This document shows, in pieces, positions 30,044-45,392 of a stretch of 64,000 bases of DNA. Numbering within the stretch: the first letter of the stretch is position 1; every line of letters begins with the position of its first letter. The notes below the pieces were generated by a model that saw nothing but the letters and a program-made list of their open reading frames with translations, was not told the DNA's origin and made no database searches. Source of the stretch: an uncultured Alphaproteobacteria bacterium (lineage in GTDB: Bacteria; Pseudomonadota; Alphaproteobacteria; UBA7985); the NCBI GenBank assembly GCA_905479265.1, contig CAJQLX010000020.1, forward strand, positions 11,906 to 75,905, in the 5' to 3' direction. A program made the position numbers and the translations under genes.

Positions 30044-30161
30044 ATCAATCACACCATAAACCGTCGCGTGCAGGCCAGCGTGGGTTGGCCGCCGGGACGA
30101 TACACAGGTCAAACGCCCGCGCCTCGGACGAGGACGGATCATTCTTTGGAGAGCCTCGTTA

Positions 30162-31091: not shown

Positions 31092-31313
31092 CGCCGATTT
31101 TATTCTCGGCTTTTAGGCTGGCATTCTCGCCCGCGGCACGATTGGTTTCGTGGCGCGGGCTTTTTTGTTGTTCTGGACCGCCGCCCCGTAAGCGGGCGAT
31201 GGCAAAGCATCACTTGAGCGTGAGTCTAGAGCGCGGCGCGGCTTTGCCCTTTTCCTGTCAGGGTTTTACGCTAAGTGAGATTGGTAAGACCAATTTAGAA
31301 GGAATCGAAGCCC

Positions 31314-31964
31314 ATGACCTTGAACCGACGTACTGCGCTTGGCCTGTTGGCTGGTGGTTTGGCCCTGCCGATGATGCCGGCGGGACTGGCCTTTGCTGCG
31401 CCGACCTTCCCCGGAGAAGCGCGCGTGTCGATGGACTTGTATCAGGGCGATCAGGCGATTGGGCAGCATCGGTATGAGATCACCGGCTCGGCTGCTGCGC
31501 CAACGGTTCGGACCCAAGCGGCCTTTGAGGGGCGGGTTTTTGGCTTTCGGGTCAAATACAATCTCTCGACGGTTGAAACATGGTCGGGCGGGCAACTGTC
31601 ACAGCTGCGCTCACGGGGCGAGCTGCGGGGTGAAGCATTTGAAGTGAGCGCGGACCATGATGGCGGCATCTTGTCGGTGCTGAATGCCAAGGGGCGCCGG
31701 GTCAAAGCCGATGCCAACCTGTTACCCACGACGTATTGGATGCCAAATTTCGTGCAACAGCGGCAGGCTTTGGACACCCAGCGGGGTAAGGTTTTGACCC
31801 TCAACCCGCAGTCTTTGGGCACAGGGTCGTTCCGCGGGCGGTCGGTGCAGGGCTGGGACATGGGCGGCGATCTGCCCATCAAGATTTACTATGACGGCAG
31901 CGGAACCTGGTCGGGATTGCAATTCTCTCTGCTGGGCAACGATTTCGAATATCAGCGGGTCTAA
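31314..31964 (+). CDS. Tat-signal periplasmic protein (hypothetical)
   Basis: MTLNRRTALGLLAGGLALPMMPAGLAFAAPT gives a twin-arginine leader. 216 aa with no recognisable catalytic motif. Confidence 0.5.
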   Translation: MTLNRRTALGLLAGGLALPMMPAGLAFAAPTFPGEARVSMDLYQGDQAIGQHRYEITGSAAAPTVRTQAAFEGRVFGFRVKYNLSTVETWSGGQLSQLRSRGELRGEAFEVSADHDGGILSVLNAKGRRVKADANLLPTTYWMPNFVQQRQALDTQRGKVLTLNPQSLGTGSFRGRSVQGWDMGGDLPIKIYYDGSGTWSGLQFSLLGNDFEYQRV

Positions 31965-31967
31965 GGC

Positions 31968-32717
31968 ATGAAATCTGTTTGGATCACCGGAGCGTCATCG
32001 GGGATTGGCGAGGCGCTGGCGCGATTGATGGCGCGAGAGGGGTGGCGGGTTTATGTCTCGGCGCGCCGGTCTGAGCGCTTGGAGGCGCTGGCGGCGGAAG
32101 GGATTGGCGATATTCGTCCGGTGCCACTCGATGTGACGGACGGCGCCGCGACCCGGCGCGCCGTGGCTCATATGCTCGAAGAGAGCGGGCGGCTGGACCA
32201 AGTCGTGCTGAACGCGGGCGTGTTTTGGCCGCAGACGGCGGCTGATTTCAAGGCGGAAGACGTCCACCGGATGTTCGCGGTCAATGTTGGCGGCGTTGCC
32301 GAAGGGCTGGAAGCGGTTCTGCCGCCGATGATCGAAGCCGGACAGGGGAAAATCTGTTTGCTGGGTTCGGTGGCGGGCTATCGCGGATTGCCGACGTCTC
32401 CGGCCTATTGCGGGACTAAGGCGGCGATCATTGCGATGGCGGAAAGCTTGAAGCCTGAGTTGGATCCGACGGGGGTTGTGGTGCAGGTCGCCTGTCCGGG
32501 GTTTGTGCGCTCGGAAGCGACGGCGATTAATCGGTTTCCCATGCCGTTTCTGATGGACGCAGAAGACGCAGCGGCGGCTTTTTACCGAGGTTTGACCGGT
32601 CATAACCGGTTTGAGATTACCTTTCCCAAAGTGTTTGCGGTGATCCTGAAGACCATGATGAGTTTGCCGTATTGGTTGTTTTTCATGCTTATGCGGCCTT
32701 TGGTGCCGAAGGACTGA
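31968..32717 (+). CDS. SDR-family oxidoreductase
   Basis: N-terminal ITGASSGIGEALAR (TGxxxGxG Rossmann), active-site Y…K (PAYCGTKAA), NAG motif (LNAGV). 4 bp after the upstream gene's stop. Confidence 0.85.
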   Translation: MKSVWITGASSGIGEALARLMAREGWRVYVSARRSERLEALAAEGIGDIRPVPLDVTDGAATRRAVAHMLEESGRLDQVVLNAGVFWPQTAADFKAEDVHRMFAVNVGGVAEGLEAVLPPMIEAGQGKICLLGSVAGYRGLPTSPAYCGTKAAIIAMAESLKPELDPTGVVVQVACPGFVRSEATAINRFPMPFLMDAEDAAAAFYRGLTGHNRFEITFPKVFAVILKTMMSLPYWLFFMLMRPLVPKD

Positions 32718-32842: not shown

Positions 32843-33346
32843 TTAGCGCTCTCGCTTGATCCACAGCGTAATATCCCCCAGCCACAGCCCAAACTTCTTC
32901 ATGCGGGAACGGTTGAGCATGCGATCGTCATCCACACCCAGCATAAAGTCGTCAAAGCTAAACACCATCTGCTGGCGTCCAAAGACGGGGTTGGGCAAAT
33001 CGTAGTTCAGGCTGTAGCCCGACTTAAACACGTTGGTTTCCGTGTGCGCGCCGCGCCCTTCGCCGACAATATCCCCGGCGGTAAAGCGGTAATCGTTGTC
33101 CCCGCGCTTGGCGATGGTCCAGATGCGGGTTTCGTAGCGGCCATCGACGAACCAAAACTCCTCGTTCAGCGTCAGCACCTGGGCGGGTTCATCCCAGACC
33201 CCTTCGATGCGGCACGACATTTGCCGCCCGATGTCTCCGCTGCGGCCCTGATAGAAGCCTGTACCGGTGGCCACGCCGTCGAAGAAACGCTCCAGCACAA
33301 AGGGCGTGACGGTCGGGGCGGTTCCGTTGCTGATGTCAAAGGGCAT
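32843..33346 (-). CDS. DUF3833-like protein (lipocalin-like; associated with cfa/DUF1365 clusters)
   Basis: 167 aa. The family assignment is from recalled context (these clusters usually carry a DUF3833 gene), not from a search. Tightly coupled to the upstream MFS gene, with a 5-bp gap. Confidence 0.4.
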   Translation of the reverse strand: MPFDISNGTAPTVTPFVLERFFDGVATGTGFYQGRSGDIGRQMSCRIEGVWDEPAQVLTLNEEFWFVDGRYETRIWTIAKRGDNDYRFTAGDIVGEGRGAHTETNVFKSGYSLNYDLPNPVFGRQQMVFSFDDFMLGVDDDRMLNRSRMKKFGLWLGDITLWIKRER

Positions 33347-34694
33347 GGGGCAGACGTCCTCTTCGGGTGGTCAGAATGCGTTGGATTTGCGCCTGCTTGG
33401 TCGCGGTGATGGGGAAGCGCCAACTGAGCGAAATCGCGATGATCTTGAGCACAATCGGCAGCAAAGCATAGCCCCCGGCGATGGCCCACAGCGCGCTTTG
33501 TGTCTGCACAGGCGCGCTTTCGACAAAGCCGAAGCCCTTGATCAACAGCGGGCCGACCAACCCGCCGGTTGCAACGGCCAGCGCGGTGGTCATCGACCAA
33601 TAGGCGTAGAACGACCCTGCGCGAGATCGGCCCGCGCGCAGCTCGTCCAGATCCACAACATCCGCTTGGATCGATTGGGGCAGGGTCAAGTCAGCGCCAA
33701 GCGTCAGCCCGGTCAGGAACGATATCACGAGAAAGCCGTAGAAGCCGGCTTCACCCGCAGGCAGCACGGGCGCAAAGGCAAAGATGGGACAAGCGGTGAG
33801 CATGGCGATGCACCACGCCCGATGCTTGCCCACGCGGCGGGAGACCCAGAACCAAAACGGTGTCCCCAGCATGGCCGCGACGAAATAGACGAACAGGATG
33901 CTGCCAACGGTATTGTCTTCCAGCCCGAGATTGTAGCGCACAAAGGTCAGCAACAGCGTCGGCGGCAAGACGTTGGCCAGCGCATTCACCCCGTACGCCA
34001 ACGCCAAGCGCCAGAAGGGGCCATTGCGCAGGGCGGTGGTCCAGCTTTGCCGCAGGCTGTTCGCGGGCGGCGGGTCAGGCGCACGGTCGGGGGTGAGGCT
34101 CAGGCCCAAGCTGACACACAGCGGAAAGCCGATGGCCAGCCCAATCCCCAACGCCGAAATTTGCTCAGCGACCGTCGGGAAAATGGCGATCAGCATAAAG
34201 GAAATCAGCGTGCCAAGGATGATCCCGCCGGTGCGAAAGGTGTTGAGCAAGCTGCGGTCGTTGTACGACTTTGCCAGATCAGGCGTCCACGCGCTGTGCG
34301 GCACTTCGATGAACTCGATACCGATGTAGGCCAGCGTCGCCCACAGTGTGAACTGCCACAGGGGCGGCGGAGACGAGGGCAGCAACAACTGCCACACGGC
34401 AACCATGGCGAAGAGGGTGCCGAGCAGGATCCACGGTCTGCGCCGTCCGGGGATCAGCGGGAAGGCAACGTGGTCCGACAGCCACCCGACCAGCGGATCG
34501 ACCACAAAGATGCACAGCCGGGCGATAAACAGCGCAATCGCCACCGCGCTCAGCCCCAGTCCGAGGTCTTCGCCGTAGTAGTTCTGGAGCAGCACGCCCA
34601 GAGGGATCGACAGGGCGGCAACCGGCAAGGCGGGCAGCGCGTATCCCAGCAAAATGCGCCATGTCAGTGGCGCGTGCGTTGTGGCTTGAGTCAT
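33336..34694 (-). CDS. MFS transporter
   Basis: 452 aa with about 12 predicted TM helices and a two-fold repeat of 6-helix bundles. MFS-like loop motif G..SDR.G-like (GWLSDHV). Confidence 0.8.
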   Translation of the reverse strand: MTQATTHAPLTWRILLGYALPALPVAALSIPLGVLLQNYYGEDLGLGLSAVAIALFIARLCIFVVDPLVGWLSDHVAFPLIPGRRRPWILLGTLFAMVAVWQLLLPSSPPPLWQFTLWATLAYIGIEFIEVPHSAWTPDLAKSYNDRSLLNTFRTGGIILGTLISFMLIAIFPTVAEQISALGIGLAIGFPLCVSLGLSLTPDRAPDPPPANSLRQSWTTALRNGPFWRLALAYGVNALANVLPPTLLLTFVRYNLGLEDNTVGSILFVYFVAAMLGTPFWFWVSRRVGKHRAWCIAMLTACPIFAFAPVLPAGEAGFYGFLVISFLTGLTLGADLTLPQSIQADVVDLDELRAGRSRAGSFYAYWSMTTALAVATGGLVGPLLIKGFGFVESAPVQTQSALWAIAGGYALLPIVLKIIAISLSWRFPITATKQAQIQRILTTRRGRLPHAL

Positions 34695-34752
34695 AGTCTA
34701 AAAGGTGGGGCGAAATCTCATAGGTCAACCGGCGCGCCCACCCTTTGACCGC

Positions 34753-36033
34753 CTAGGCGCGCTCGAACACCAGCTTGCCGCCGACGTAGGTCTTGAGCAC
34801 CACGCCACGGGCGGGAATGCCTTCGTAGTTGAAGTTGCGGCAGCGGCTGTGCAGGCGCGCTTCGGACAGCCGGCGGGGGCGGTCGAGATCCGCAAGCGTC
34901 AGGTCCGCTGGCGCATTGGGCCGGATGCCGCTTTCAAGCGCGAACACGCGGGCCGGCGCCGAGGTCAGAGCGCTGATCAGGCGCGCTTTGGACACGCCGC
35001 GATCTTCGAGCGAGAGTGCCAGCGAGAAGAAGGTCTCCAACCCCACCATCCCCGGTTCTGCTTGCTCGAACGGCACGCGCTTGTGATCGGTGTCGATGGG
35101 GCGGTGGTCTGAAACCAGAGTATCTAGGGTGCCATCGGCCAAGCCTTGCACGACCGCCAACCGGTCGCGGTCTGGGCGCAAGGGGGGGTGGAGCTTGGCG
35201 TGGGTGCGATAATCGCCAATGGCAATGTCGGTGAGCGTCGCGTGGGCGATGCCCGTTCCGGCGGTAATCGGCAGCCCGCGGGCTTTGGCATCGCGAATGG
35301 CGTTCACGCCCTCGGCAGAGGTTACCATGTCAAAGTGCGCCTGTACGCCGGTCATCTCGACCAAGCGCAGGTCACGTTCGATCGACATGACTTCAGCCAG
35401 CGCGGGAATACCGCCCAGACCCATGCGCGCGGCAAGCTCGCCCCCGATGACGCCGGGCTCGCCCCAAACCGCATCCATCTGGCCCAAGCAAACAGTCAAA
35501 CCGGTAGAGCGGGCATAGTTCAGCGCGCGGGAAATCGTATCCAGCGGGCCAACAGGCGCGGTGCCGTTGGAAAAGCCAAGCGCGCCCGCTTCGGCCAGCA
35601 GGCCCAGTTCGGCCAGTTCTTTGCCTTCGCAGCCAACAGTCAGCGCGCCGAGGGTCTGCATGCGCGCGCCCTTGCCCCCTTGCGAGCGGTGCGAGACGGC
35701 GTAAACCGCTTGCGGGCGGTCAATGGCAGGGGCTGTGCTGGGCTGCGCGATAACCGTTGAGATGCCGCCGCGTGCGGCTAAGCGTGCGGTCTCGCCCACC
35801 GTTTCCCGGTATTCCAGGCCGGGTTCGGACAAGTGTACGCGGCTGTCAATCAGTCCCGGCAGCAAGGTCGCGCCTTGGCCGTCAATCACAACATCAGCAT
35901 CCGCCGCGATCGCGCTGTCCCCGCCAAAAACGGCGACGATGCGGTCGCCATAGAGCACCACGCCGCCGGGCCCATCATGACCGTTTGCTGGATCGAACAG
36001 GTGGACGTTACGGATCAGGGTTCGTTTAGACAT
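34753..36033 (-). CDS. Dihydroorotase-like protein, probably non-catalytic PyrC' (ATCase structural partner)
   Basis: Amidohydrolase fold. The first metal-binding motif reads GLIDSRVHLSEPG instead of GLIDLHVHLREPG, so the first His of HxH is lost. Start MSKRTLIRNVHLFDP lies 1 nt after the pyrB stop (TGA-T-ATG). Confidence 0.65.
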   Translation of the reverse strand: MSKRTLIRNVHLFDPANGHDGPGGVVLYGDRIVAVFGGDSAIAADADVVIDGQGATLLPGLIDSRVHLSEPGLEYRETVGETARLAARGGISTVIAQPSTAPAIDRPQAVYAVSHRSQGGKGARMQTLGALTVGCEGKELAELGLLAEAGALGFSNGTAPVGPLDTISRALNYARSTGLTVCLGQMDAVWGEPGVIGGELAARMGLGGIPALAEVMSIERDLRLVEMTGVQAHFDMVTSAEGVNAIRDAKARGLPITAGTGIAHATLTDIAIGDYRTHAKLHPPLRPDRDRLAVVQGLADGTLDTLVSDHRPIDTDHKRVPFEQAEPGMVGLETFFSLALSLEDRGVSKARLISALTSAPARVFALESGIRPNAPADLTLADLDRPRRLSEARLHSRCRNFNYEGIPARGVVLKTYVGGKLVFERA

Positions 36034-36034
36034 A

Positions 36035-37063
36035 TCAAGCCGCCCGCAGCGTTGTGGGTGCGCGCCGGGTGGCCAGCGCTTCGAAACAGGCCATGCGCAC
36101 GGCAACCCCCATCTCAACTTGCTCCCGAATTACCGATTGATCGAGATCATCCGCGATGTCAGAGGCGATTTCGACGCCGCGGTTCATCGGGCCGGGATGC
36201 ATGACCAGCGCGTCGGGTTTGGCCAACGCAAGGCGGTCTCGGTCCAAGCCATAGAACCGGAAAAACTCCCGCCCGCTGGGGATCAGTGTTCCGGCCATCC
36301 GCTCGACCTGCAAGCGCAGCATCATCACGATGTCAACGTCGCGCAAGCCTTCGTCCATGCGGTGATAAACCTCGACGCCCAAAGCCTCGTAGGAATTGGG
36401 CAGCAGCGTCGGCGGACCGATCAGCCGAACCCGCGCGCCCATTTTTTGCAGCAGCAGCAGGTTCGAGCGTGCGACGCGGCTGTGTCGAATATCGCCGCAG
36501 ATCGCGACGGTCAGCCCGTCAATCTTGCCCTTGTGCCGGCGAATGGTCAGGGCGTCGGCCAGCGCTTGGGTCGGGTGTTCGTGCTTGCCATCGCCGCCGT
36601 TGAGGACGTGCGCATCCAGCTTGCGGGACAGCAGCTTCACAGCGCCGGCTTGACCGTGGCGCACGACCAGAAAATCAGGCCGCATGGCGTTCAGCGTGTC
36701 GGCGGTGTCGATCAGGGTCTCACCCTTTTTGACCGAGCTGGTCGCCACATCCATATTCACCACGTCTGCACCCAGCCGCTGTGCTGCAATCTCAAAGGAA
36801 GAGCGCGTGCGGGTCGAGTTCTCGAAGAACAGGTTGATCACGGTTGACCCTGCGAGGGCGTCTGGCGCTTCGCCGGGTTCGAGCTCTGCGAAGTATGCGG
36901 CGCGGTCGAGCAAATAGGCAATCTCACCGGGCTTGAGCGGGTCGATGCCGAGCAAGTGCGCATGGGAAAAGCCGTAGCCGATGGTCGCGGGGGGGAAAGA
37001 CTGTGTCATGGGTCCAATTAATAAGCCAATTCGCGCGCTGGCGGAACGATGAAAACACGGCAT
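36035..37063 (-). CDS. pyrB: Aspartate carbamoyltransferase catalytic subunit
   Basis: Carbamoyl-phosphate site STRTR (…[10 protein letters not shown]…). [12 protein letters not shown] and HPGP… are ATCase/OTCase hallmarks. 342 aa. Confidence 0.9.
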
Positions 37064-37126
37064 ATTCCGCTGACGGCGAAATCAGCGGCCAACCGTGTCT
37101 CAAACTCCAGAGACAGGAAACCTCGG

Positions 37127-38365
37127 TCAGGCTGGTTTCTGCAGCCTGACTTGTGTGACCCCAATTTGATCAAAGTCGAAACCGACCGAACAGTGAATCA
37201 GGTAGTATTCCCACATGCGCTTGAACCGCTCGTCAAAACCCATGTCGCGGATCGTGGTCCAAGCGGCTTGGAACTTATCGTTCCACTGCAGCAATGTCTT
37301 GGCGTAGCTCTTGGCGTATTCGCCGTTAGGCTCGTACTGCATGCCCACGCGCTCGGTGCATTCCCTCATCCGGCTGTGGCTGAGCAAGCGGCCACCGGGG
37401 AAGATATAGCGGCTGATGAAATCGACCTGCGAGAGGTATTCTTCGAGCTTGTCATCTGGCACCGTAATGGCTTGAATCGCCGCAGCACCGCCGGGCTTGA
37501 GCACTTTAGCGATTTGGCCAAAGTAGGTGTCCCAGTATTTCTCGCCCACTGCTTCGATCATCTCAATCGACGCGACGCGGTCGTATCGGCCCGCTTCGGT
37601 ATCGCGATAATCCTGCATCCGCAGCTCAATCTTGTCGCTGATGCCTTCGCGCTGGAAACGGGCGGCGGCGAAGTCGTGCTGCTCTTGGCTGATGGTGATG
37701 CAGGTCATGTTCACGCCGACGTTCTTCACGGCGTACTCCGCAAACCCGCCCCAGCCGCAGCCAATCTCAAGCACTTGATCGCCCGGTTGCATCTGCGCCG
37801 TTTCCGCGATGCGCTTGTATTTCTCCTGCTGCGCGGCATACAGATCGTCGCTGTTGCTGCCTTCAAACACAGCAGACGAATAGGTCATGGAATCATCCAG
37901 CCACGTCGAATAGAACGCGTTGCCCAGATCATAGTGTTCGGCAATGTTGCGCCGCGAACCGTCCTTGGAGTTTGGCCGCAAGAAATGGAAGACCTTGGCC
38001 AACAAGCCGGACCAGCCATAGGTCCGCATGTTGCTCAGGAACCAGTCCTGATTGGTCAGGGCCCAATCCATGAGATCTTTCAGATCCGCTGTGTCAATCA
38101 GCCCGTCCATGTAGACTTCGGCCAGACCCAATTCGCCACCACCGGCAATACGCGGAATTGCACCCCAAGACCGCAGGTGAACGATGCCGTGCGGTCCGGG
38201 TTGCTTACCCTTTACGCAGTACGTCGAACCGTCGGGCAAAGTGACGTCTAATTGCCCAAATTCAATGCCGTCTTCCATCGTCCGAAAGAAGCGTTGAAAG
38301 TTAGGTTTCGCAAACGCTTGACTAAGCGTATTTCCAATCACGATAGAATGCTCCCCACCGAACAT
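37127..38365 (-). CDS. Cyclopropane-fatty-acyl-phospholipid synthase family SAM-dependent methyltransferase (CfaS/UfaM-like)
   Basis: SAM motif VLEIGCGWGGFAEYA. N-terminal CFA-synthase-specific domain. 412 aa. Confidence 0.85.
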   Translation of the reverse strand: MFGGEHSIVIGNTLSQAFAKPNFQRFFRTMEDGIEFGQLDVTLPDGSTYCVKGKQPGPHGIVHLRSWGAIPRIAGGGELGLAEVYMDGLIDTADLKDLMDWALTNQDWFLSNMRTYGWSGLLAKVFHFLRPNSKDGSRRNIAEHYDLGNAFYSTWLDDSMTYSSAVFEGSNSDDLYAAQQEKYKRIAETAQMQPGDQVLEIGCGWGGFAEYAVKNVGVNMTCITISQEQHDFAAARFQREGISDKIELRMQDYRDTEAGRYDRVASIEMIEAVGEKYWDTYFGQIAKVLKPGGAAAIQAITVPDDKLEEYLSQVDFISRYIFPGGRLLSHSRMRECTERVGMQYEPNGEYAKSYAKTLLQWNDKFQAAWTTIRDMGFDERFKRMWEYYLIHCSVGFDFDQIGVTQVRLQKPA

Positions 38366-38407
38366 ATAACCTTTGAGACCTTCCTAGTTGGGGTCTCTTA
38401 GTGCCAA

Positions 38408-39235
38408 TTAAATATTGTTGGCTTGGTTTTGCCAAGTCTGAGCGGAAGAACCAAGCGATACTGCGTCTTTTGGCGGCTCTGGACGGTGGAAAAATGTCGC
38501 TCTTTTGCGGGTGAAGAGATGCAAGGCTTCCCAGTGGATCTCAAAAACCACCTTCAAGGGAATCATCGGCGCTTTGAATAAGGCTTGGAGAAGCGCTTTG
38601 GCGGTCAGTTGAGTCCGCTTGGCGCGATGCGTGGCGATCAATCGGTCGCCTTCCTCGCCCTCGTAACGGATCAGCAGGGAATAGGTCTCACCCGCCGGTT
38701 CCAACCGGAATGAGTAACCGCCGGTGACGGGCATAAAGGGGCTGACGTAGAGTTTCTTGACGGCGTCGTGATGCAGGACGCGCTGGTCCGCCTGCGCGTC
38801 GTTGATCGGCACCAAGTATGAATGCTTGTCGCCAAAGGTATTGTGAACCTCATACAAAACAGCGCGCAAATCCTCATCCGGGCCATAGCAGAACCAGACG
38901 CTGATCGGGTTAAACGTATGCCCCAGAACGCGCGGCATGCACAGGATTTGAACCCGTCCGCCTTCGAGGTCGATATGCGCCGCGCTCAGGTGCGCATCCA
39001 GCCACGGACGCAGCGGAGAGCCGTCGCACGGGCCGTGGTCGCGATCGTTGAAGCTGTAGAGCGAAAACCGGTTATGGCCGAACAGCGGCAGTTCGCGATC
39101 CAGCGTTTCCAGCTCATCAAGATCGAACAGAACGGAGAACACGCGGTATCTGAAACGGTGTTTTTTTGGGTTCATGCGCTGGTGCATGACCCGGCCCCAA
39201 TAGAAGGCAGATTTCAGAGAGCCGCGCGCCGTCAT
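38408..39235 (-). CDS. DUF1365 domain-containing protein (UfaO-like)
   Basis: Family-typical N-terminus YWGRVMHQRMNPKKHRFRYRVFSVLFDLDE. Its start overlaps the upstream oxidoreductase stop. Confidence 0.75.
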   Translation of the reverse strand: MTARGSLKSAFYWGRVMHQRMNPKKHRFRYRVFSVLFDLDELETLDRELPLFGHNRFSLYSFNDRDHGPCDGSPLRPWLDAHLSAAHIDLEGGRVQILCMPRVLGHTFNPISVWFCYGPDEDLRAVLYEVHNTFGDKHSYLVPINDAQADQRVLHHDAVKKLYVSPFMPVTGGYSFRLEPAGETYSLLIRYEGEEGDRLIATHRAKRTQLTAKALLQALFKAPMIPLKVVFEIHWEALHLFTRKRATFFHRPEPPKDAVSLGSSAQTWQNQANNI

Positions 39236-39237
39236 CG

Positions 39238-40623
39238 CTATTCAGCCGCAACGCGTTGGCTGTCGATCTCAGACAAGGGCGCCAGCCGGTCGAATTGCAG
39301 TTGCACCGCACGGGCCATATCGACACAGCGTACAGAAGCGCTCATCGGTACAATGTCCTTGGTCCACTCAACCTGAGCCCCGAGCGCGGCAGCCACACTC
39401 AAACCAGCCTGACATCCATCCTCGTGGAAGCCATAGCCGGCATAGGCACCGGCGAACCACGTGCGGTTGATGCCTTGCAGCGAGGCGAGCTGCGATTGCG
39501 CGTCCAGTGCTGCTTGGTCGAAGAGTGGGTGGTCATAATCGAAAGTCTGAATGACCTTCGCGGGGTCAATTTCATCGTAGGGGTTCAGGGTGACAAACAC
39601 GGGCTCTGGGCTTTCAAAGCTCTGCAGCGCGTTCATGTAATAGGTTACGGCCACCGGACTTGCCGTTTCACCAAAATCCCGGCTCAAGTAGTTCCAAGCG
39701 CCCCAAACGGCGCGGTTGTTCGGCATCTGCGACGTGTCGGTGTGAAGCACGGCGCGGTTGGCTTGGTATTTGAGATTGCCCAACGTGGCGCGTTCGGCGT
39801 CGGTGGCGCTGTCGCCGAGGATGCTTAGGGCCTGGTTGCTGTGACAGGCGAGAATGACATCGTCGAACAGGTCTTCGTGTCCGTCGGCGGTGCGCAGCTT
39901 GACCGAGTTCGGACCGCGCTCCAGCTCCACCACGGCGGAACCCATGCGCACGCGTCCGGGGCCGAGCGCTTGGACGATACGGTTTACGTATTCACGCGAG
40001 CCCCCATCGACCGTGTACCACTGGATCGTTTGACCGTTCTGCATCAGGCCGTGGTTTTTGAAAAAGCGCAGGAAGGTCGCGAGCGGAAAGTCGCGGAAGC
40101 CTTCTGTGCTGGACGACCAAATCGCAGCCGAGGAAGGAAGCAGGAAGTCTTCGGCAAAGGGAGAGTTGAGGTCGTGCTTGTCCAAAAAATCGCCAACCGT
40201 CATGGTTGGATCAACGCGGTCACCGTGCATTTTGTTGCCAACGTCGATAAACCGCAGCGCCTGACGCACCATTTTCCAATGGCGCGGGCTGAGCCAGTTT
40301 TTCGCGCCAGCGAGCAGGTCGCGCCCGGTGAACTCGCGCTTTCCGTTTGCGATCCCAACCGCGAAATGCATTTCCGCCTGCTTTGTCGGTACGTTCAATT
40401 CGTCGAACAAGCCGCACAGGTTCGGATAGTTGGCATGATTAAAGACGATGAAACCCGTATCAACCGGACCGGACCAGCCGTCGAGGGTGACGTCCACGGT
40501 ATTGCTGTGACCGCCCAGACGAGAGTCGGCTTCGTACAGGGTTACGTCGGCGCTGTTGCGCAGGGCGTAGGCGGCTGAAAGTCCGGAGATACCGGATCCG
40601 ACAATAGCAATCTTGTTTCTCAT
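39238..40623 (-). CDS. NAD(P)/FAD-dependent oxidoreductase, amine-oxidase-like (UfaD-like)
   Basis: Dinucleotide fold KIAIVGSGISGLSAAYAL…YEADSRLGGH. 461 aa. 4-nt overlap with the photolyase gene. Confidence 0.8.
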   Translation of the reverse strand: MRNKIAIVGSGISGLSAAYALRNSADVTLYEADSRLGGHSNTVDVTLDGWSGPVDTGFIVFNHANYPNLCGLFDELNVPTKQAEMHFAVGIANGKREFTGRDLLAGAKNWLSPRHWKMVRQALRFIDVGNKMHGDRVDPTMTVGDFLDKHDLNSPFAEDFLLPSSAAIWSSSTEGFRDFPLATFLRFFKNHGLMQNGQTIQWYTVDGGSREYVNRIVQALGPGRVRMGSAVVELERGPNSVKLRTADGHEDLFDDVILACHSNQALSILGDSATDAERATLGNLKYQANRAVLHTDTSQMPNNRAVWGAWNYLSRDFGETASPVAVTYYMNALQSFESPEPVFVTLNPYDEIDPAKVIQTFDYDHPLFDQAALDAQSQLASLQGINRTWFAGAYAGYGFHEDGCQAGLSVAAALGAQVEWTKDIVPMSASVRCVDMARAVQLQFDRLAPLSEIDSQRVAAE

Positions 40624-42176
40624 GCGGCGTGGGCCTTTTCGGCTTGGGAAGTCGGTGAGGAGGAAGGCGGGGTCGCAGGCTTTTTGATCGTCGAATAGGC
40701 AGCAAGCGCACGCGCGCGGGCAGTGGCGTGATCGACGATGGGTCGCGGGTAAGTCTTACCCAAGGTCACGCCGCCTGCTTGCATCAGCAGTGGATCAGCA
40801 TTCCAAGGTTCAAACAAGCTCTTGTCGTCCAGTTTGGCCAATTCAGGGACGAAGTGACGGATATATTTTGCGTCTGGGTCGAACTTTGGGCCTTGCGTGA
40901 TGGGATTGAACACGCGGAAAAACGGCGAGGCGTCTGCGCCGCTGCCGGCCACCCACTGCCAGCCTGCGCTGTTGGAGGCGATATCGGCATCGACCAGCGT
41001 GTCCCAGAACCAGCGCTCACCTTTTTGCCATGGCTGCAGTTGGTGTTTGACGAGGAACGAGCCGGTGATCATCCTCACGCGGTTATGCATCCAGCCGGTT
41101 TGCCACAGTTGGCGCATGCCGGCATCGACCATGGGGTAGCCCGTCTGCCCTTTGCACCACGCCGCGTAGCCGTCTGCATTTTCATCCCATGGGAAGCGAT
41201 CAAAATCGGCTTTCCAGTTGTGGGAAGGCAGGGTCGGGAAGTGGTGGAGCAGGTAATAGGAAAACTCGCGCCAGCCGATTTCACGCAAAAAGGCCCAGCC
41301 GGGGTTTTCGAGTTGTGGTGTGGTGCTCATCACCTGCAACGTCCAATGCCAGAGCTGCCGCGGTGATACGTGCCCGAATTTCAGGAATGGGCTGAGGCGG
41401 GAGCAGGCTTCCAGATCGGGCCGGTTGCGGCCTTCATTGTAGTTTCCCAGTCCGCCACCGCGCCCGTCGCCCGCGATAAACGCATCAAAACGGGCCTGAG
41501 CGCCCGCTTCGCCCGGCGTCCACGTCGCCGCTAAACCAGCGGACCAGTCCGGCGCGGTGGGCAACAGGTTCAGCGCGTCGAGGGTTAGCGCGTCGCGGAT
41601 CGGTCCGTTGAAAGCCGGGATTTGCGCTGGCGCGGGGGTGGGTTGGCTGACGCTGTGAAGGCTGATGGTTTTCCAGTAGGGGGTAAAAACCTTGAACACA
41701 CCGCCGCTCTTGTTACGGACGGCAACGGGTTCTGAGATCAGGTTGCCGTTGAAGGATTTCGCTTCGATCCCTTGGTCTTTGAGCGTGGTCTTTAGGCCAG
41801 CGTCTGGCTCACGATCATAGGGCGCGTAGGATCGGTTCCAGAACACAGCACCAGCGCCGAGTTGGTCCGCCAGATCCGCAATCACGCCGTCGGCTTTGCC
41901 GCGCAGCAAAACCAGCCCGCTACCGCGCTTCTCCAAGTCTGCATTCAGCGCGGCTAAGCCCTGATGCAGCCACCAGCGCGACGCGCCACCCAAGGCCCAC
42001 GGGCCGGGTGTTTCGTCATCAAGAACATAAGCGCAAACCACGGGACCGCCGCGCTCGACGGCGGCATTGAGCGCAGGATTGTCGGCCAGACGGAGGTCAT
42101 GGCGAAACCACAGGATGCTGACGGGCTGATTTGGATTTGAGGCGGCAGTGGTCAAAGGTCTCGATACTCGGTGCAT
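40620..42176 (-). CDS. phr: Deoxyribodipyrimidine photolyase (cryptochrome/photolyase family)
   Basis: N-terminal photolyase domain (LWFRHDLRLADNPAL). FAD-binding domain with the Trp-rich region (…WREFSYYLL…, …TGYPMVDAGMRQLWQTGWMHNRVRMI…). Confidence 0.9.
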   Translation of the reverse strand: MHRVSRPLTTAASNPNQPVSILWFRHDLRLADNPALNAAVERGGPVVCAYVLDDETPGPWALGGASRWWLHQGLAALNADLEKRGSGLVLLRGKADGVIADLADQLGAGAVFWNRSYAPYDREPDAGLKTTLKDQGIEAKSFNGNLISEPVAVRNKSGGVFKVFTPYWKTISLHSVSQPTPAPAQIPAFNGPIRDALTLDALNLLPTAPDWSAGLAATWTPGEAGAQARFDAFIAGDGRGGGLGNYNEGRNRPDLEACSRLSPFLKFGHVSPRQLWHWTLQVMSTTPQLENPGWAFLREIGWREFSYYLLHHFPTLPSHNWKADFDRFPWDENADGYAAWCKGQTGYPMVDAGMRQLWQTGWMHNRVRMITGSFLVKHQLQPWQKGERWFWDTLVDADIASNSAGWQWVAGSGADASPFFRVFNPITQGPKFDPDAKYIRHFVPELAKLDDKSLFEPWNADPLLMQAGGVTLGKTYPRPIVDHATARARALAAYSTIKKPATPPSSSPTSQAEKAHAA

Positions 42177-42230
42177 TGCGTTGAAAATCCCGAGCGACGC
42201 GCGGGGTGGCGCATGCTTGGGCGCAGCGCA

Positions 42231-42995
42231 TCACCGCAACAAAGATTCCCCCCTGACTGCTGCGATTTGCCGCTTTCCCAAAAGGTAGACCGCGCATTTG
42301 GTAAGACCAGTCCCTTGCGCAACAGAATTATGAGAGAACAGAGCCGTTATCGAGGGGTGAGCAACGTTCAAACCGCCGGTAAAGGTGCCAAAGGCCGGTA
42401 GGATCAGTCGCTGCGAATCGTGGATAAAACAAGAGCGCGTCAGCGGGCGACCGTTGGGGCCGCGAATGCTGGCTTTTGGGTGCCAATGTCCTGAGATTTC
42501 GCCCGGCAACGGGAACAGCGGGGAGGCTTCGTGCCGGAAGTGCAGCGGGCCAAGTAAAATGTCCTCGTGAACGTCACCGCCCAAGTGCTCGGGAACCTCT
42601 GGGTCGTGGTTGCCTGTCACCCAGATGAAGCGCTCGACTGAGGCTGTGAGGCGCTGCACGCGGGCGAGCAGGGCATCGCTTAGGCCAGCGATGACCGCAG
42701 GATTATGAAAGGAATCGCCCAATGAAATCAGCGTGCGCGCTTTGGTCGACGCCACCAGCGCCTCGACCCGGCTGAGGGTTTCGTCACTGTCATAGGGGGG
42801 TAAGAACGTGCCTGAGCGCGCAAAGGCTGCGCCCTTTTCAAGGTGCAGATCGCTGACGATCAAAGCGCTGGCTGCGGGCCACAAAAGCGCGCCTGTGACG
42901 TGCGCCACAAGCTGCTCACCGTTGAAGGAAAACGGGAATAACGGGTTCGCGGGCGAGGTCTTGGGCTTGGCTTTGGCGGCGGAAACGTCTGTCAT
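42231..42995 (-). CDS. Metallophosphoesterase, PdeM-like (ligase-associated DNA-damage-response endonuclease family)
   Basis: LIVSDLHLEKGAAF… GDSFHN… VTGNHD… are calcineurin-like motifs. The C-terminal CFIHD…LILPAFGTFTGG is PdeM-like. No Lhr or ligase gene is adjacent. Confidence 0.6.
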   Translation of the reverse strand: MTDVSAAKAKPKTSPANPLFPFSFNGEQLVAHVTGALLWPAASALIVSDLHLEKGAAFARSGTFLPPYDSDETLSRVEALVASTKARTLISLGDSFHNPAVIAGLSDALLARVQRLTASVERFIWVTGNHDPEVPEHLGGDVHEDILLGPLHFRHEASPLFPLPGEISGHWHPKASIRGPNGRPLTRSCFIHDSQRLILPAFGTFTGGLNVAHPSITALFSHNSVAQGTGLTKCAVYLLGKRQIAAVRGESLLR

Positions 42996-43173
42996 GGGGT
43001 GGGTTTAAAGCAGGCTTAGTGAGCTGTCATCACCTGCGCGATTGCACGGCTCTGGCGGAGTGACGCACGGCATGTGCCGGGGCAGGGCGAGTGCTGCTTG
43101 AAACCGCGATTGTGCAAGTGGTGTCGCGACAGGGCTAGGGGCGGTGTGGGCGGTGGTGTAGCAGGGGAAAGTC

Positions 43174-45333
43174 ATGTCTGCTCCTGCCACTGTTTTGATC
43201 GATTTTCCCATGTCTCAAACGCCTAAATTCCATCGATTGCTGAACCCCAAAACCATCGCCGTTGTTGGTGGATCGTGGGCAGCGGCGGTGATTGAGCAGT
43301 GCGAACGCATGGGGTTTGAGGGCGAGATTTGGCCGGTTCACCCCAGCAAAACCGACGTTCGAGGCCGCAGAGCCTATGCGTCGATTGACGCGCTTCCCGC
43401 GGCGCCAGACGCGACTTTTGTTGGGGTGAACCGAGCGGCAACGCTGGAGGTTGTGCGCGCACTTTCAGCCCGGGGCGCAGGCGGGGCGACGTGCTTTGCA
43501 GCGGGCTGGGCCGAAGTTGAAGCCGAGGGCGAGGCCATGCAAGCGGCGTTGCTGGAAGCCGCCGGTGACATGCCGATTTTTGGGCCCAACTGCTATGGGC
43601 TGATCAACTATTGCACCGGCGCGACGCTGTGGCCGGACGTTCATGGCGGTTCGCGGGTGGAGCGCGGGGCGGCGCTGATTTGCCAATCGTCGAACATTGC
43701 CATCAACCTGACCATGCAGCGTCGGGCGTTGCCGCTGAGTTTCGTTCTGACCGTCGGGAACGGCGCGCAGGTGGGGCTGGGCGATATGATCGAGGAGCTG
43801 GCCGCCGATGAGCGGGTAACAAGCATTGGCTTGTATATCGAAGGATTTGGCGATCCGGCGCGCTTTGCCCAAGCCGTGGCCGCAGCGCACGCGCGCGGTG
43901 TTGGCGTGGTGGCGATCAAGGCTGGACAGTCCGAAGGCGGGCAAGCGCTGGCGCTGACGCATACGGCGTCGCTGGCTGGTGGCGCGGCGGTGGCGTCTGC
44001 GTTCCTGGCGCGCACAGGCGTGGCGGAAGTGGCGACGCTGCCAACCCTGCTGGAAACGCTCAAGGTGCTGCATTTCAAGGGCGCGCTGGACAATTGCCGG
44101 GTCATATCGGTGAGCTGTTCGGGCGGTGAAGCGGGTTTGATGGCGGATTTGGGCGCAGCGGCGGGACTGGAATTTCCAGCCCTGAGCGAGGCGGAAGCAG
44201 CACGGATCGGCGAGAGCTTGAACCCCCTTGTCACCGTCTCCAACCCCTTTGACTACAACACCTTTGATTGGGGTGATTCGGCGGCGCTGGGGGCGATGTG
44301 GGCGGGGATCATGGCGCTGGACGTTGCGCACCCGATGTTGGTGATCGATTGGCCAGCAGAAGGCACGGGACCGACGCACACGTGGGACGTGGCGATTGAG
44401 GCCGTTGGCGCGGCGCTGAACGGATCAGATCGGCGGGCCGGGGTTCCGGCGCTGGTGGCATCCTTGCCGGAGAATATGCCCGGCGCGGCGGCAGAAAAGA
44501 TTGCTGGGCTGGGTCTGGTGCCGGGGCATGGCTTAGACGAGCATCTGCAGGCCGTTGCGGGCGCAGCGCAAATTGGCGGGCATCGCCGGGCACTGGCAAA
44601 CGCAACCGTGCTGCCCGTGCAGATTTTGCCCGGTGGGCGGGCGTCCGGTTCCTCCCCCATGTTGGATGAAGCGGCAGCAAAAACACGGCTGGGGTCGTTT
44701 GGGATTCCTGTGCCAGAGCATCGAACCTGCGCAAGCGTTGAAGAGGCGGTCGCGGCAGTGGTTGACTTTGGCCACGCCGGGACGCGCTGCGCGATGAAGA
44801 TTTTGGGCGATTTTCCGCATAAAACGGAGCTGGGCGGCGTCCGGCTGGGGCTGGGCGCGGATGATCTGGACGCGGTTCGATCGGCGGCGCGTGCCTTGCT
44901 GAACATTTCCGGTGCCGTGTTGGTCGAGCCGATGGCCGATAAGCCGGTGGTCGAGATGATCCTTGGCGTTGCGCAGGATCCGGCGCTGGGGCTGCATGTG
45001 GTCTTGGGCGCGGGCGGGGTTTTGACCGAGATTTTGGCCGACAGCGAAATCCTGCTGTTTCCTTACGCTGAGGCTGACGTTCGAGCGGCGCTGGAACGCT
45101 TGCGGATATGGCCGCTGCTGGCCGGGTATCGCGGGGCGGCTGGCGGTGATGTGAGCGCGCTGGTTGGCGCGGTGATGGCGCTGGGTGATTTCGTGCAGGC
45201 CCATGCGGACCGGCTGATCGAGCTGGACATCAACCCGTTGTTTGTCCATGCGGCAACTGAAGCAAGTGGCGCAGGTGGCGCGAGTGGCGCAGGCGTCATG
45301 GCGGTTGACGCTCTGGTCAGAATGACGGACTGA
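43174..45333 (+). CDS. Acetate--CoA ligase family protein (ADP/NDP-forming acyl-CoA synthetase, fused alpha/beta domains)
   Basis: N-terminal CoA-binding domain (KTIAVVGGS), succinyl-CoA-synthetase-like ligase-CoA domain, C-terminal ATP-grasp. 719 aa. An alternative start is at 43210. Confidence 0.8.
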   Translation: MSAPATVLIDFPMSQTPKFHRLLNPKTIAVVGGSWAAAVIEQCERMGFEGEIWPVHPSKTDVRGRRAYASIDALPAAPDATFVGVNRAATLEVVRALSARGAGGATCFAAGWAEVEAEGEAMQAALLEAAGDMPIFGPNCYGLINYCTGATLWPDVHGGSRVERGAALICQSSNIAINLTMQRRALPLSFVLTVGNGAQVGLGDMIEELAADERVTSIGLYIEGFGDPARFAQAVAAAHARGVGVVAIKAGQSEGGQALALTHTASLAGGAAVASAFLARTGVAEVATLPTLLETLKVLHFKGALDNCRVISVSCSGGEAGLMADLGAAAGLEFPALSEAEAARIGESLNPLVTVSNPFDYNTFDWGDSAALGAMWAGIMALDVAHPMLVIDWPAEGTGPTHTWDVAIEAVGAALNGSDRRAGVPALVASLPENMPGAAAEKIAGLGLVPGHGLDEHLQAVAGAAQIGGHRRALANATVLPVQILPGGRASGSSPMLDEAAAKTRLGSFGIPVPEHRTCASVEEAVAAVVDFGHAGTRCAMKILGDFPHKTELGGVRLGLGADDLDAVRSAARALLNISGAVLVEPMADKPVVEMILGVAQDPALGLHVVLGAGGVLTEILADSEILLFPYAEADVRAALERLRIWPLLAGYRGAAGGDVSALVGAVMALGDFVQAHADRLIELDINPLFVHAATEASGAGGASGAGVMAVDALVRMTD

Positions 45334-45392
45334 ATGGACGTTTGCACCGGGTCCAAACCACGGATTTACTTTGTCAGCACAGGGAGTGCGCA

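Follow-up and report, generated by a model that had tools for sequence, protein, structure and literature searches.

A putative photolyase and furan-fatty-acid stress cluster that carries pyrB-pyrC' and has apparently exchanged its sigmaE promoters in an uncultured marine alphaproteobacterium

Results

Gene content of the locus

The window analysed here is a 64-kb stretch of uncultured Alphaproteobacteria DNA from a marine lineage, in which a gene string occupies positions 32843–42995. This interval is filled by nine ORFs, all co-directional on the minus strand, in the order PdeM, photolyase, UfaD-like, UfaO (DUF1365), UfaM-like, PyrB, PyrC', MFS_2, and DUF3833; the ORF listing and family profile matches bear out the names given in the initial annotation. 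Gaps of at most 63 bp had been claimed there, whereas corrected starts give junctions, in gene order, of +54, −4, +2, +66, +117, +1, +58, and −11 nt, the widest intergenic gap being 117 nt. The identical order, including pyrB-pyrC', was found in every covering contig of the window's clade (76–99% UfaO identity), namely L001–L008 for the whole string and L092 through pyrC', so the arrangement is not due to chance.

The PdeM-family metallophosphoesterase (42231–42995; 254 aa) is assigned as a ligase-associated DNA damage response endonuclease (TIGR04123, 206.6 bits versus a cutoff of 150; PF00149). The Lhr-like helicase adjoining PdeM is absent from the window and present upstream in L009 and L030. 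A 518-aa ORF (40620–42176; PF00875 and PF03441) encodes a PhrA-like, class III-like CPD photolyase, whose best solved relative is the DNA photolyase 4U63 (517 bits, E 3.6e-154). Its stop codon is overlapped by 4 nt (ATGA) by the start of ufaD (39238–40623), predicted to encode a 461-aa UfaD-like FAD-dependent fatty-acyl desaturase of the amine-oxidase fold (PF01593 and PF13450). The next gene (38408–39235) specifies a 275-aa DUF1365 protein (PF07103, 266.7 bits), the family identified with UfaO (PMC7380195) and predicted to carry out O2-dependent furan ring formation; its AF2 model (pLDDT 92.8) gave weak matches to calycin/FABP-like barrels. The UfaM-like ORF (37127–38365; 412 aa) belongs to the CMAS family of putative SAM-dependent fatty-acyl methylases (PF02353, 270 bits), and its likely start is GTG at 38341, preceded by the Shine-Dalgarno sequence GGGGAG and giving 404 aa. 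Beyond pyrB-pyrC' lie a 452-aa MFS_2 (GPH-family) transporter gene (33336–34694; PF13347, 223.6 bits) and, overlapping its end by 11 nt, a 167-aa DUF3833 gene (32843–33346; PF12915, 118 bits) whose product has no N-terminal signal peptide here. A convergent plus-strand pair, unmentioned in the initial annotation, is part of the same conserved neighborhood: DUF6134 with a signal peptide (31314–31964; 216 aa; PF19630, 100 bits), followed by a 249-aa short-chain dehydrogenase/reductase (SDR; 31968–32717; PF00106, 157.8 bits). The latter is an accessory gene of the type of RSP1087, the SDR within the Rhodobacter sphaeroides core regulon (PMC5507510).

The cluster in relatives and the sigmaE promoter

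Among 48 distant loci (38–54% UfaO identity), the core consists of ufaD-ufaO-ufaM(-MFS_2-DUF3833) plus the convergent SDR/DUF6134 pair. Neighbor frequencies, counted over 28 distant loci, place UfaD directly upstream of UfaO in 27, MFS_2 after ufaM in 13 (a conserved ufa accessory gene), DUF3833 in 13, and the convergent SDR in 17. DUF6134 accompanies the ufa clusters of L011, L016, L024, and others, where a sigmaE promoter precedes it. The exact ECF11 sigmaE promoter TGATCC-N16-CGTA, counted on the coding strand within 350 bp upstream, was present in 22 of the 48 distant loci, often beside a divergent rpoE-chrR; the divergent genes in these relatives encode an ECF sigma factor and a ChrR cupin. 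The motif would arise by chance in an estimated ∼4e-4 of loci (ten fixed bases in 380 bp). In a UfaO tree anchored by synteny, the window's clade was monophyletic and nested among sigmaE-linked sequences. Assignment of the genes described here as putative Ufa orthologs is based on family membership, gene order, and the rpoE-chrR linkage in relatives.

A search for RpoE-type promoters had been proposed at 42996–43173, 38366–38407, and 37064–37126, but none of these regions holds the motif, and TGATCC-N15-18-CGTA has zero exact matches across the 64 kb. Near matches, differing at one or two positions, fall within genes and lack conservation, and the motif is also absent from the orthologous places in L001–L008 and L092. 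No rpoE/chrR homolog is encoded in the 64-kb window, whose sole ECF-like sigma factor shows ∼26% identity to ECF11 RpoE and is not accompanied by a ChrR partner. An exact same-strand motif is likewise missing from about half of the distant loci, so this absence is not unique to the window's clade. Of the proposed singlet-oxygen sigmaE/ChrR regulon, therefore, the gene content stands: it is the phr / ufaD-ufaO-ufaM / MFS_2 / DUF3833 / SDR neighborhood whose relatives carry ECF11 promoters and adjoining rpoE-chrR. Membership of the regulon in the window's organism is unlikely on present evidence, because the window contains neither the motif nor rpoE/chrR. An rpoE-chrR pair may lie elsewhere in the genome with altered promoter specificity.

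pyrB-pyrC' within the cluster

The gene at 36035–37009 (minus strand) encodes the 324-aa catalytic chain of aspartate carbamoyltransferase (NF002032, 395 bits versus a cutoff of 263), with its most likely start at 37009, matching the calls in relatives. One nucleotide separates the pyrB stop codon from pyrC' (34753–36033, minus strand; most likely start 36033), whose 426-aa product aligns with Aquifex dihydroorotase (DHOase). Of the six metal/catalytic ligands, four have been replaced (H61 by R, D153 by N, H180 by G, and H232 by M) and two, H63 and D305, are retained, and the score falls under every DHOase equivalog cutoff; the earlier label pyrC' is thereby borne out, the product being an inactive, dihydroorotase-like PyrB partner. 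Such a pair is reminiscent of the Pseudomonas-type class A aspartate carbamoyltransferase (ATCase), in which pyrB likewise adjoins a dihydroorotase-like gene without zinc ligands and PyrB and PyrC' form a PyrB-PyrC' holoenzyme.

The nearest PyrB homologs outside the clade come from Rhodospirillales-type alphaproteobacteria (67–72% identity). Neither pyrB nor pyrC occurs within the ufa cluster in any of the 48 distant loci, and in every cluster-bearing contig of the clade the pair is embedded; L092, too, keeps the insertion, with MFS_2-DUF3833 lost. In L094 the pair stands in its ancestral context and in L093 (81% identity) in a non-embedded one. Comparison of these gene contexts indicates that a native pyrB-pyrC' pair is translocated between ufaM and MFS_2 in the window's clade. 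The suggestion of a local rearrangement or separate promoters is supported by these contexts together with the promoter-like block and hairpin described below.

Candidate operators and promoters

The window contains exactly two copies of the 12-mer TTGGTAAGACCA (0 expected), one ahead of the photolyase gene and one ahead of DUF6134. The first copy belongs to site A (42297–42311), a GntR/FadR-type palindrome reading ACTGGTCTTACCAAA on the minus strand and a candidate operator for phr-ufaD-ufaO, which lies within the coding 3' tail of PdeM, with the photolyase ATG ∼120 nt downstream. Site A comprises 17 invariant columns without third-codon wobble, the longest such run in the PdeM alignment of four clade members; L001, L004/5, and L092 have the site, and distant loci do not. 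A search with the 11-mer over 94 loci returned clade members only, at orthologous positions only. Site B (31280–31294), a second candidate operator with the DUF6134 ATG 20 nt downstream, is the perfect GntR/FadR-type palindrome ATTGGTAAGACCAAT and the best-conserved block of the DUF6134 upstream region in four clade members; it is absent in L092. With the next T (31280–31295) it reads ATTGGTAAGACCAATT, equal to the last 16 bases of the 17-bp Escherichia coli pdhR operator AATTGGTaagACCAATT (PMC7660256). The E. coli PdhR box AATTGGTnnnACCAATT, bound by a GntR-family regulator of the FadR subfamily, shares the central AAG with site B, although the target genes in the window are unrelated and the organism is different. 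A third palindrome, site C (TTGGCAAAACCAA), is overlapped by the −35 of a sigma70-like block, TTGGCA-N17-TTTAAT (38407–38435, minus strand), at the 3' end of ufaO, a candidate separate promoter/operator for ufaM. This block is conserved in the window, L001, L003, L004, and L006, with the variant TTGCCA-N17-TTTAAT in L092. No GntR-family gene lies within the 64 kb.

Between ufaM and pyrB, a hairpin followed by a U-run (37051–37097, minus strand) resembles an intrinsic terminator or attenuator (−25.2 kcal/mol, z = −4.3; none of 200 shuffled sequences reached this stability). L001 and L003 have an equivalent hairpin and U-run with other stem bases; the hairpin was not significant in L004, L006, and L092. 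The block TTCCGC...TTGGCTTA(T/G)T (37017–37046, minus strand) ends 7–8 nt before the pyrB ATG without a Shine-Dalgarno sequence and is a candidate pyrB promoter whose mRNA would be leaderless or nearly so. It is kept in six clade sequences, including L092, and is missing in L093 and L094, where pyrB lies outside the ufa context. Upstream of MFS_2, TTGACC-N12-CCCCACCT (34703–34728, minus strand) ends exactly 8 nt before the ATG and is a candidate sigma32-like promoter for a leaderless MFS_2-DUF3833 transcript (consensus used, CTTGAAA[11-15]CCCCATnT; PMC6699477). The generic pattern matches nowhere else in the window, but a single match is not significant alone (0.43 expected; 32% of shuffles give at least one match), and the spacer is short (12 nt). 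The motif stands at a fixed distance in L001, L003, L004, and L006, in which the remaining spacer has diverged.

Discussion

The closest known system is the sigmaE-ChrR core regulon of R. sphaeroides (Cereibacter), composed of RSP1091-1087 (ufaD, ufaO, two unknowns, and SDR) and RSP2143-2144 (phrA and ufaM). The window shares its FAD oxidoreductase, DUF1365, CMAS methylase, CPD photolyase, and SDR families, and presumably the same chemistry (PMC7380195). In R. sphaeroides, these genes occupy two loci beside divergent rpoE-chrR with TGATCC-N16-CGTA promoters, whereas the window has them at a single locus that lacks this promoter, is not joined by rpoE-chrR anywhere in the 64 kb, and contains the inserted pyrB-pyrC'. 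By gene order, the window is matched by Rhodopseudomonas palustris RPA2571-RPA2570-RPA2569(-RPA2568), an identical contiguous ufaD-ufaO-ufaM arrangement in which the three genes RPA2571-2570-2569 suffice for 9M5-FuFA synthesis; unlike the window, that locus as described has no photolyase/PdeM upstream and no pyr genes downstream (PMC7380195). Pseudomonas syringae DC3000 PSPTO_1121-1114 (phrB ... SDR, amine oxidase, DUF1365-type, cfa) is likewise a photolyase-headed, co-directional lipid locus. Its ECF11 promoter (consensus TGATCC-N16-CGTA; PMC5507510) lies inside the upstream gene, whereas the equivalent place in the window, the PdeM 3' end, holds the GntR-type palindrome. A precedent for repressor instead of sigmaE control is the light-inducible phrB-SDR-FAD oxidoreductase-ufaM-cryB cluster of Pseudomonas putida and Pseudomonas mendocina, which is governed by a class II LitR (MerR/CarH family) and short LOV proteins (PMC9758184). 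The LitR operator (TGTACA-N12-GGTATA-like) and adjoining litR of that cluster are absent in the window, whose palindrome is of the GntR/FadR type.

With a probability of roughly 60%, we read the locus as a known photolyase and furan-fatty-acid stress cluster into which pyrB-pyrC' moved and whose sigmaE promoters were apparently replaced. By analogy with R. sphaeroides and R. palustris, UfaM would methylate cis-vaccenate chains on phospholipids to 11Me-12t-18:1, UfaD would desaturate this to 11Me-10t,12t-18:2, and the DUF1365 beta-barrel protein UfaO would insert O2-derived oxygen to yield the furan fatty acid 9M5-FuFA; the CPD photolyase gene is co-located with these lipid genes. The MFS_2, DUF3833, DUF6134, and SDR accessory proteins are dispensable for synthesis in Rhodobacter. 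The class A ATCase genes, with their inactive partner, would have moved from a ruvX...plsY-dprA neighborhood, their usual position and that seen in Aestuariispira, into the stress lipid cluster, and the ECF11 promoters would have been lost from the cluster in the window's lineage. The string would no longer form one operon and may comprise about five units plus the convergent DUF6134-SDR unit: PdeM alone; phr-ufaD-ufaO, probably translationally coupled; ufaM, under a separate sigma70-like promoter and followed by the terminator-like hairpin; and, each probably with a leaderless mRNA, pyrB-pyrC' under its own promoter and MFS_2-DUF3833 under a sigma32-like one. The phr-ufaD-ufaO and DUF6134-SDR units would share a near-identical operator of the GntR/FadR type, TTGGTAAGACCA, and we infer that sigmaE-ChrR has given way to a metabolite-sensing repressor of the GntR family that is encoded elsewhere.

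It is unlikely, though worth weighing, that the TTGGTAAGACCA sites and the TTGACC...CCCCAC motif are nonregulatory, reflecting coding constraint, close kinship, or chance, with constitutive expression from ordinary promoters. The clade sequences are few (four to six) and partly independent, site A falls in PdeM coding sequence, the sigma32 pattern in its generic form carries no significance by itself, and no regulator gene was found in the window. However, the two 12-mer copies stand in nonhomologous contexts, one coding and one intergenic, and precede the two units that have sigmaE promoters in relatives; site A is invariant at synonymous positions while its flanks vary, and both site B and the sigma32-like block have stayed identical within spacers that otherwise diverged (e.g., L004 and L006). 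We consider it rather improbable that the genes are Ufa-like by sequence only and that the product, instead of 9M5-FuFA, is for example a furan with other substituents or an acyl chain that is only methyl-branched, diunsaturated, or cyclopropane-bearing. Even sigmaE-linked relatives are just 40–54% identical, and the CMAS protein also resembles cyclopropane synthases, but its ∼250 bits against the equivalog models reach none of their cutoffs (400–650). Moreover, the three genes ufaD-ufaO-ufaM, in this order, were shown to suffice for R. palustris to make furan fatty acids, and the enzymes of R. sphaeroides and R. palustris can replace one another although diverged (PMC7380195).

Direct control of the string by RpoE-type promoters as part of the ECF11 singlet-oxygen regulon, as in R. 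sphaeroides, is very improbable: the string has the genes of the core regulon (PMC5507510; PMC6852236) and relatives at 40–54% identity have both promoter and adjoining rpoE-chrR, but against this stand the lack of exact motifs in the window, the intragenic and unconserved nature of the degenerate matches, the empty orthologous sites of every clade contig, and an ECF-like sigma so distant from RpoE with no ChrR beside it. Least probable is a functional position for pyrB-pyrC', in which pyrimidine synthesis would be co-regulated with dimer repair and stress by attenuated read-through from ufaM, as the hairpin and U-run ahead of pyrB and retention of the insertion in all cluster-bearing clade members, even L092, might suggest, since a conserved promoter-like block lies between hairpin and pyrB ATG, the hairpin is unconserved in half of the clade, and an essential gene pair is expected to be retained wherever it lands. 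We know of no biochemical link in this respect. The reading of a relocated pyrB-pyrC' pair and replaced promoters would describe a known system in which the regulation and structure of the cluster are new in this lineage.

Gene content of the string and its relatives

The initial annotation described a string of nine co-directional genes at positions 32843–42995, and ORF calling in the window filled this interval with nine minus-strand ORFs; the string and the names given to its genes were both borne out by Pfam and NCBIfam profile searches. In gene order, these encode PdeM (an equivalog by TIGR04123, 206.6 bits against a cutoff of 150), a photolyase (phr), the amine-oxidase-fold FAD enzyme UfaD (PF01593 and PF13450), the DUF1365 protein UfaO (PF07103, 266.7 bits, matching over its full length), the CMAS-family methyltransferase UfaM (PF02353, 270 bits), a PyrB equivalog (NF002032, 395 bits against a cutoff of 263), an adjoining dihydroorotase-like protein (pyrC'), an MFS_2 transporter, and a DUF3833 protein. 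Start codons were corrected from relatives' gene calls and from conserved Shine-Dalgarno and leader sequences, to 37009 for pyrB, 36033 for pyrC', and a GTG at 38341 for ufaM, giving junctions, in gene order, of +54, −4, +2, +66, +117, +1, +58, and −11 nt. Immediately downstream of the string, and part of its neighborhood, is a convergent plus-strand DUF6134-SDR pair (31314–32717).

The window comes from an uncultured marine alphaproteobacterium, for which a species-level genome collection contained only three close relatives, all “Alphaproteobacteria bacterium” MAGs; a metagenome scan yielded distant relatives only, and members of the immediate clade were gathered by exact-protein look-ups. 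All clade contigs that span the region share the gene order of the window, with pyrB-pyrC' between ufaM and MFS_2. A more distant member, L092 (PyrB 88% identical), carries PdeM-phr-ufaD-ufaO-ufaM-pyrB-pyrC' without MFS_2-DUF3833, and its convergent unit retains a DPRP cryptochrome-like gene. Among 28 distant loci with enough flanking DNA, UfaD was present in 27, UfaM in 26, the convergent SDR in 17, MFS_2 and DUF3833 in 13 each, DUF6134 in eight, photolyase in five, and PdeM in two, while PyrB or PyrC was found in 0 of 28; all genes but pyrB-pyrC' are therefore recurrent members of the neighborhood.

The best solved relative of the photolyase was 4U63 (517 bits), which we take to be the Agrobacterium class III CPD photolyase PhrA. 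Several relatives (L009, L011, and L092) have a DPRP gene (PF04244, cryptochrome/photolyase-related) between SDR and DUF6134; this gene is missing from the window, which thus has only one photolyase-family gene at the locus. No partner of PdeM in the ligase-associated damage system (Lhr-like DEXH helicase, ATP-dependent ligase, or exonuclease) was found within the window; a helicase adjoins PdeM in L009 and L030.

Divergent from PdeM, a plus-strand group at 43174–46993 encodes an NDP-forming acyl-CoA synthetase (CoA_binding_2/Succ_CoA_lig/ATP-grasp_5) followed by two enoyl-CoA hydratases. This arrangement is kept in the clade contigs L001 and L004, but an M20 peptidase takes its place in L092, and these genes are therefore probably not members of the ufa system. 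On the other flank, a plus-strand MTHFR-like gene followed by a pterin-binding MtrH/CdhD-like methyltransferase gene (29138–31091) lies beside the cluster throughout the clade (L004 and L092). Elsewhere in the window, a DUF1501/DUF1800 gene pair occupies 18719–22217 (minus strand), and a plus-strand ORF at 48786–51359 encodes aspartyl-tRNA synthetase. Because the catalytic and anticodon-binding domains of the latter begin only at residue 278 and its 5' part overlaps an EamA transporter gene (48402–50048, minus strand), the real aspS start lies much further downstream than the ORF start.

Relationship to the characterized furan-fatty-acid system

UfaM, UfaD, and UfaO make the furan fatty acid 9M5-FuFA, UfaO being equated with DUF1365, while RSP1087–1089 are dispensable for synthesis; in R. 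palustris the ufa genes RPA2571-2570-2569 stand in the order ufaD-ufaO-ufaM (PMC7380195), the same order as in the window. The ufaD gene lies directly upstream of ufaO with a gap of 2 nt, and the same pairing occurs in 27 of the 28 distant loci. Against the Cfa (cyclopropane synthase) equivalog models, UfaM scored ∼250 bits where the cutoffs are 400 to 650, which shows that by these profiles the CMAS protein is not a Cfa equivalog; the low score is no demonstration of UfaM activity for this putative methylase. A PDB sequence search with UfaO gave no meaningful solved relative. Its AlphaFold model is confident (pLDDT 92.8) and had weak matches only, to calycin, fatty-acid-binding-protein-like, and nitrobindin barrels; the predicted fold fits a protein that may hold an acyl chain and adds little beyond that.

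Homologs of UfaO form a tight clade at 76 to 99% identity and then fall to about 50%. In a simple neighbor-joining tree of UfaO, built without bootstrap, sigmaE-linked loci are found in all parts of the tree, and the window clade forms a single long branch in their midst; the loci around it have rpoE-chrR and sigmaE promoters, as R. sphaeroides does. The sigmaE motifs of the relatives, their divergent ECF sigma and ChrR genes, and the nested UfaO tree support orthology of the window cluster with the characterized Ufa system and suggest that sigmaE control is ancestral; the enzymology of the string is inferred from the characterized orthologs. The assignment of the gene content to a furan-fatty-acid, sigmaE-regulon set is upheld by gene families, gene order, and relatives' neighborhoods.

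Absence of the sigmaE-ChrR signature

The initial annotation further proposed sigmaE/ChrR singlet-oxygen control as in R. sphaeroides. The promoter consensus of this ECF11 group is TGATCC-N16-CGTA, and in P. syringae such a promoter precedes a locus in which the same lipid genes follow a photolyase gene (PMC5507510). Of the 48 distant loci, 22 carry an exact motif no more than 350 bp upstream of ufaD or phr, often with a second copy on the other strand, and further copies precede DUF3833 and the DUF6134 unit. Both divergent genes were scanned at four loci, and at each of these they encode an ECF sigma factor and a ChrR-type cupin anti-sigma; at a fifth locus the scan covered the sigma gene alone. 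Many distant relatives carry an internal sigmaE-type promoter (TGATCC or TGATCT, N16, CGTA) for DUF3833 inside the 3' end of MFS_2, in its last codons (positions 13457–13482 of L011; also L024, L028, L033, L038, L048, and L083), which suggests that DUF3833 may be expressed separately from the transporter in those relatives.

The exact motif occurred 0 times in the 64-kb window (0.19 expected) and in 0 of 4 clade loci, as compared to 22 of 48 distant loci, and is absent from all three orthologous places in every clade contig. It is also missing from L029 and L030, two outgroup loci arranged as PdeM-phr-ufa; L009 has it. Matches with one to two mismatches or a 17-nt spacer at 41714–41740 and 42381–42406 were rejected, being inside phr and PdeM and not conserved, as was a degenerate TGATGA-N16-CTTT upstream of PdeM considered as a relic promoter, the spacing of which is not kept in L004. 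Pfam and tblastn searches found no rpoE or chrR homolog in the 64 kb. The sole ECF-like sigma (23142–23750, minus strand) shares about 26% identity with ECF11 RpoE and lacks a ChrR cupin partner. This divergent protein has Sigma70_r4 and a weak r2 region, and a downstream ORF on the same strand (about 22772–23140) encodes a small protein with one hydrophobic segment, possibly an anti-sigma. With neither motif nor rpoE/chrR in the 64 kb, regulation of the sigmaE type finds no support in this organism; what stands of the initial interpretation is the gene content, the pyrC' call, and a local rearrangement of pyrB-pyrC'.

GntR/FadR-type palindromes at positions where relatives carry sigmaE promoters

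Exactly two copies of the 12-mer TTGGTAAGACCA are present in the window, as compared to 0 expected: at 42298–42309, inside the 3' tail of PdeM and about 120 nt before the photolyase ATG (site A), and at 31281–31292, 20 nt before DUF6134 (site B). The sigmaE promoters of relatives sit at those two places, before phr and before DUF6134. In the 94 loci that were fetched (about 1 Mb in total), the 11-mer was confined to clade members and to the positions of sites A and B. Site A shows 17 invariant columns in a row, with no third-codon wobble, across four diverged sequences, and site B is the best-conserved block of the DUF6134 upstream spacer. The full site B, ATTGGTAAGACCAAT, is a perfect 6-3-6 palindrome.

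Written (A)TTGGTAAGACCAA(T), the clade palindrome has the operator type of GntR/FadR-subfamily regulators and is a candidate operator. Of the 12 bases specified in (A)TTGGT-N3-ACCAA(T), site B matches all 12 and site A 10. Site B also agrees with the 17-bp E. coli pdhR operator, AATTGGTaagACCAATT, over the last 16 bases of that operator (PMC7660256). No GntR-family gene (PF00392/FCD) was present among the window ORFs scanned, and the cognate regulator could be encoded elsewhere.

Near-matches to the ATTGGTnnnACCAAT palindrome, with one to two mismatches, lie at 25249–25263 and 26800–26814, one of them about 520 nt upstream of a dihydrolipoamide-dehydrogenase-like gene (25780–27201). Between PdeM and the divergent acyl-CoA synthetase, the block TAGCCCTGTCGCGACACCACTTGCACAATCGCGG (43104–43137), which includes the palindrome GTCGCGAC, is strongly conserved in the window, L001, and L004 and may be an operator or promoter of either divergent unit.

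Other cis elements within the string

A conserved TTGGCA-N17-TTTAAT block occupies the last 30 nt of ufaO, its −35 element lying within a related palindrome, and is followed by a 5' UTR, the Shine-Dalgarno sequence GGGGAG, and ufaM. Between ufaM and pyrB, a strong hairpin with a U-run is present in the window, L001, and L003 (z = −4.3), with differing stem sequences; no significant hairpin was detected there in L004, L006, or L092. A conserved TTGGCTTAGT-type block, without a Shine-Dalgarno sequence, ends 7 to 8 nt before the pyrB ATG and is missing where pyrB lies outside the cluster. Five clade sequences have TTGACC-N12-CCCCACnT ending at the same distance, exactly 8 nt, from the downstream MFS_2 ATG, the remaining spacer (58–313 nt) being unrelated. 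This motif resembles the sigma32 consensus CTTGAAA[11-15]CCCCATnT (PMC6699477), a pattern that alone is not significant in the window. The R. sphaeroides RpoHI/II logo (TTG at −36 to −34, A−12, T−9) fits only if the spacer is shortened by 2 nt, and the motif is therefore called sigma32-like rather than RpoH-proven. A generic sigma70 and terminator scan over 31–44 kb was uninformative, its counts being equal to the shuffled expectation, and Rfam gave no match at E ≤ 1 over the same interval, hence no known riboswitch or pyr leader there.

Origin of the pyrB-pyrC' insertion

Relative to the Aquifex dihydroorotase, pyrC' has lost four of six metal or catalytic ligands (H61R, D153N, H180G, and H232M). 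The dihydroorotase-like protein is therefore taken as an inactive PyrC', as initially annotated, and a PyrB equivalog adjoined by such a protein without metal ligands matches the class A ATCase arrangement. The nearest non-clade homologs of PyrB are from Rhodospirillales-type alphaproteobacteria (67–72% identity), the same group as for the other genes, so pyrB is native. Third-position GC is 0.76 for pyrB and pyrC' as compared to about 0.70 for the ufa genes; this difference is too small to indicate foreign origin, MFS_2 and DUF3833 are equally high, and there is no clear compositional break. Repeats around the insertion were short and at chance level, and neither inverted nor direct ones border the cassette; there is hence no sign of a mobile element.

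In Aestuariispira the context is ruvX-...-pyrB-pyrC'-plsY-dprA, and in L093, a locus outside the ufa context (PyrB 81%), pyrB-pyrC' is not beside ufaM. The simplest reading of these gene orders is that the only pyrB-pyrC' copy was translocated within the lineage, after the split from that of L093, and then would have gained or kept its own promoter, in agreement with the local rearrangement first suggested. The pair is mainly a clean example of an essential gene pair landing in a stress operon while insulated from it, with no wider consequence on present evidence.

A proposed regulatory scheme and its significance

From conservation, transcription would proceed from about five minus-strand units and the convergent unit. 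In this scheme, a single GntR-type repressor would control both phr-ufaD-ufaO and DUF6134-SDR, ufaM would be expressed from its own promoter, pyrB-pyrC' would be insulated, and MFS_2-DUF3833 would lie behind a heat-shock-sigma-like promoter. As to control of the LitR/CarH type, no MerR-family gene is present in or beside the string. Pseudomonas LitR/LOV is a precedent for a repressor-based alternative to sigmaE at such a cluster, but the operator type differs here, that of LitR being TGTACA-type (PMC9758184). A farther-reaching reading, tentative and held at a probability of 0.3, is that the clade swapped the ancient sigmaE-ChrR control for a third regime: a metabolite-sensing GntR/FadR-family repressor acting at TTGGTAAGACCA on phr-ufaDO and DUF6134-SDR, an RpoH-type promoter for MFS_2-DUF3833, and a pyrB-pyrC' insertion that cut the cluster into leaderless mini-operons. 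If the effector were an acyl-CoA or oxidized lipid, the cue for furan-fatty-acid synthesis would be lipid status instead of singlet oxygen.

The system belongs to a known type, in a variant that is new in structure and regulation; of interest are a specific candidate operator and a naturally occurring example of regulon rewiring rather than a new mechanism. Furan fatty acids have been proposed to act as scavengers in membranes and to signal photo-oxidative damage, and their bacterial synthesis has been linked to singlet oxygen through the sigmaE-ChrR switch or, in Pseudomonas, to light sensing by LitR/LOV. Here a marine lineage retains the same set of enzymes without a sigmaE promoter at the cluster and without rpoE-chrR nearby, and the short, testable operator candidate together with the candidate promoters makes the signal for furan-fatty-acid synthesis outside phototrophs directly testable.
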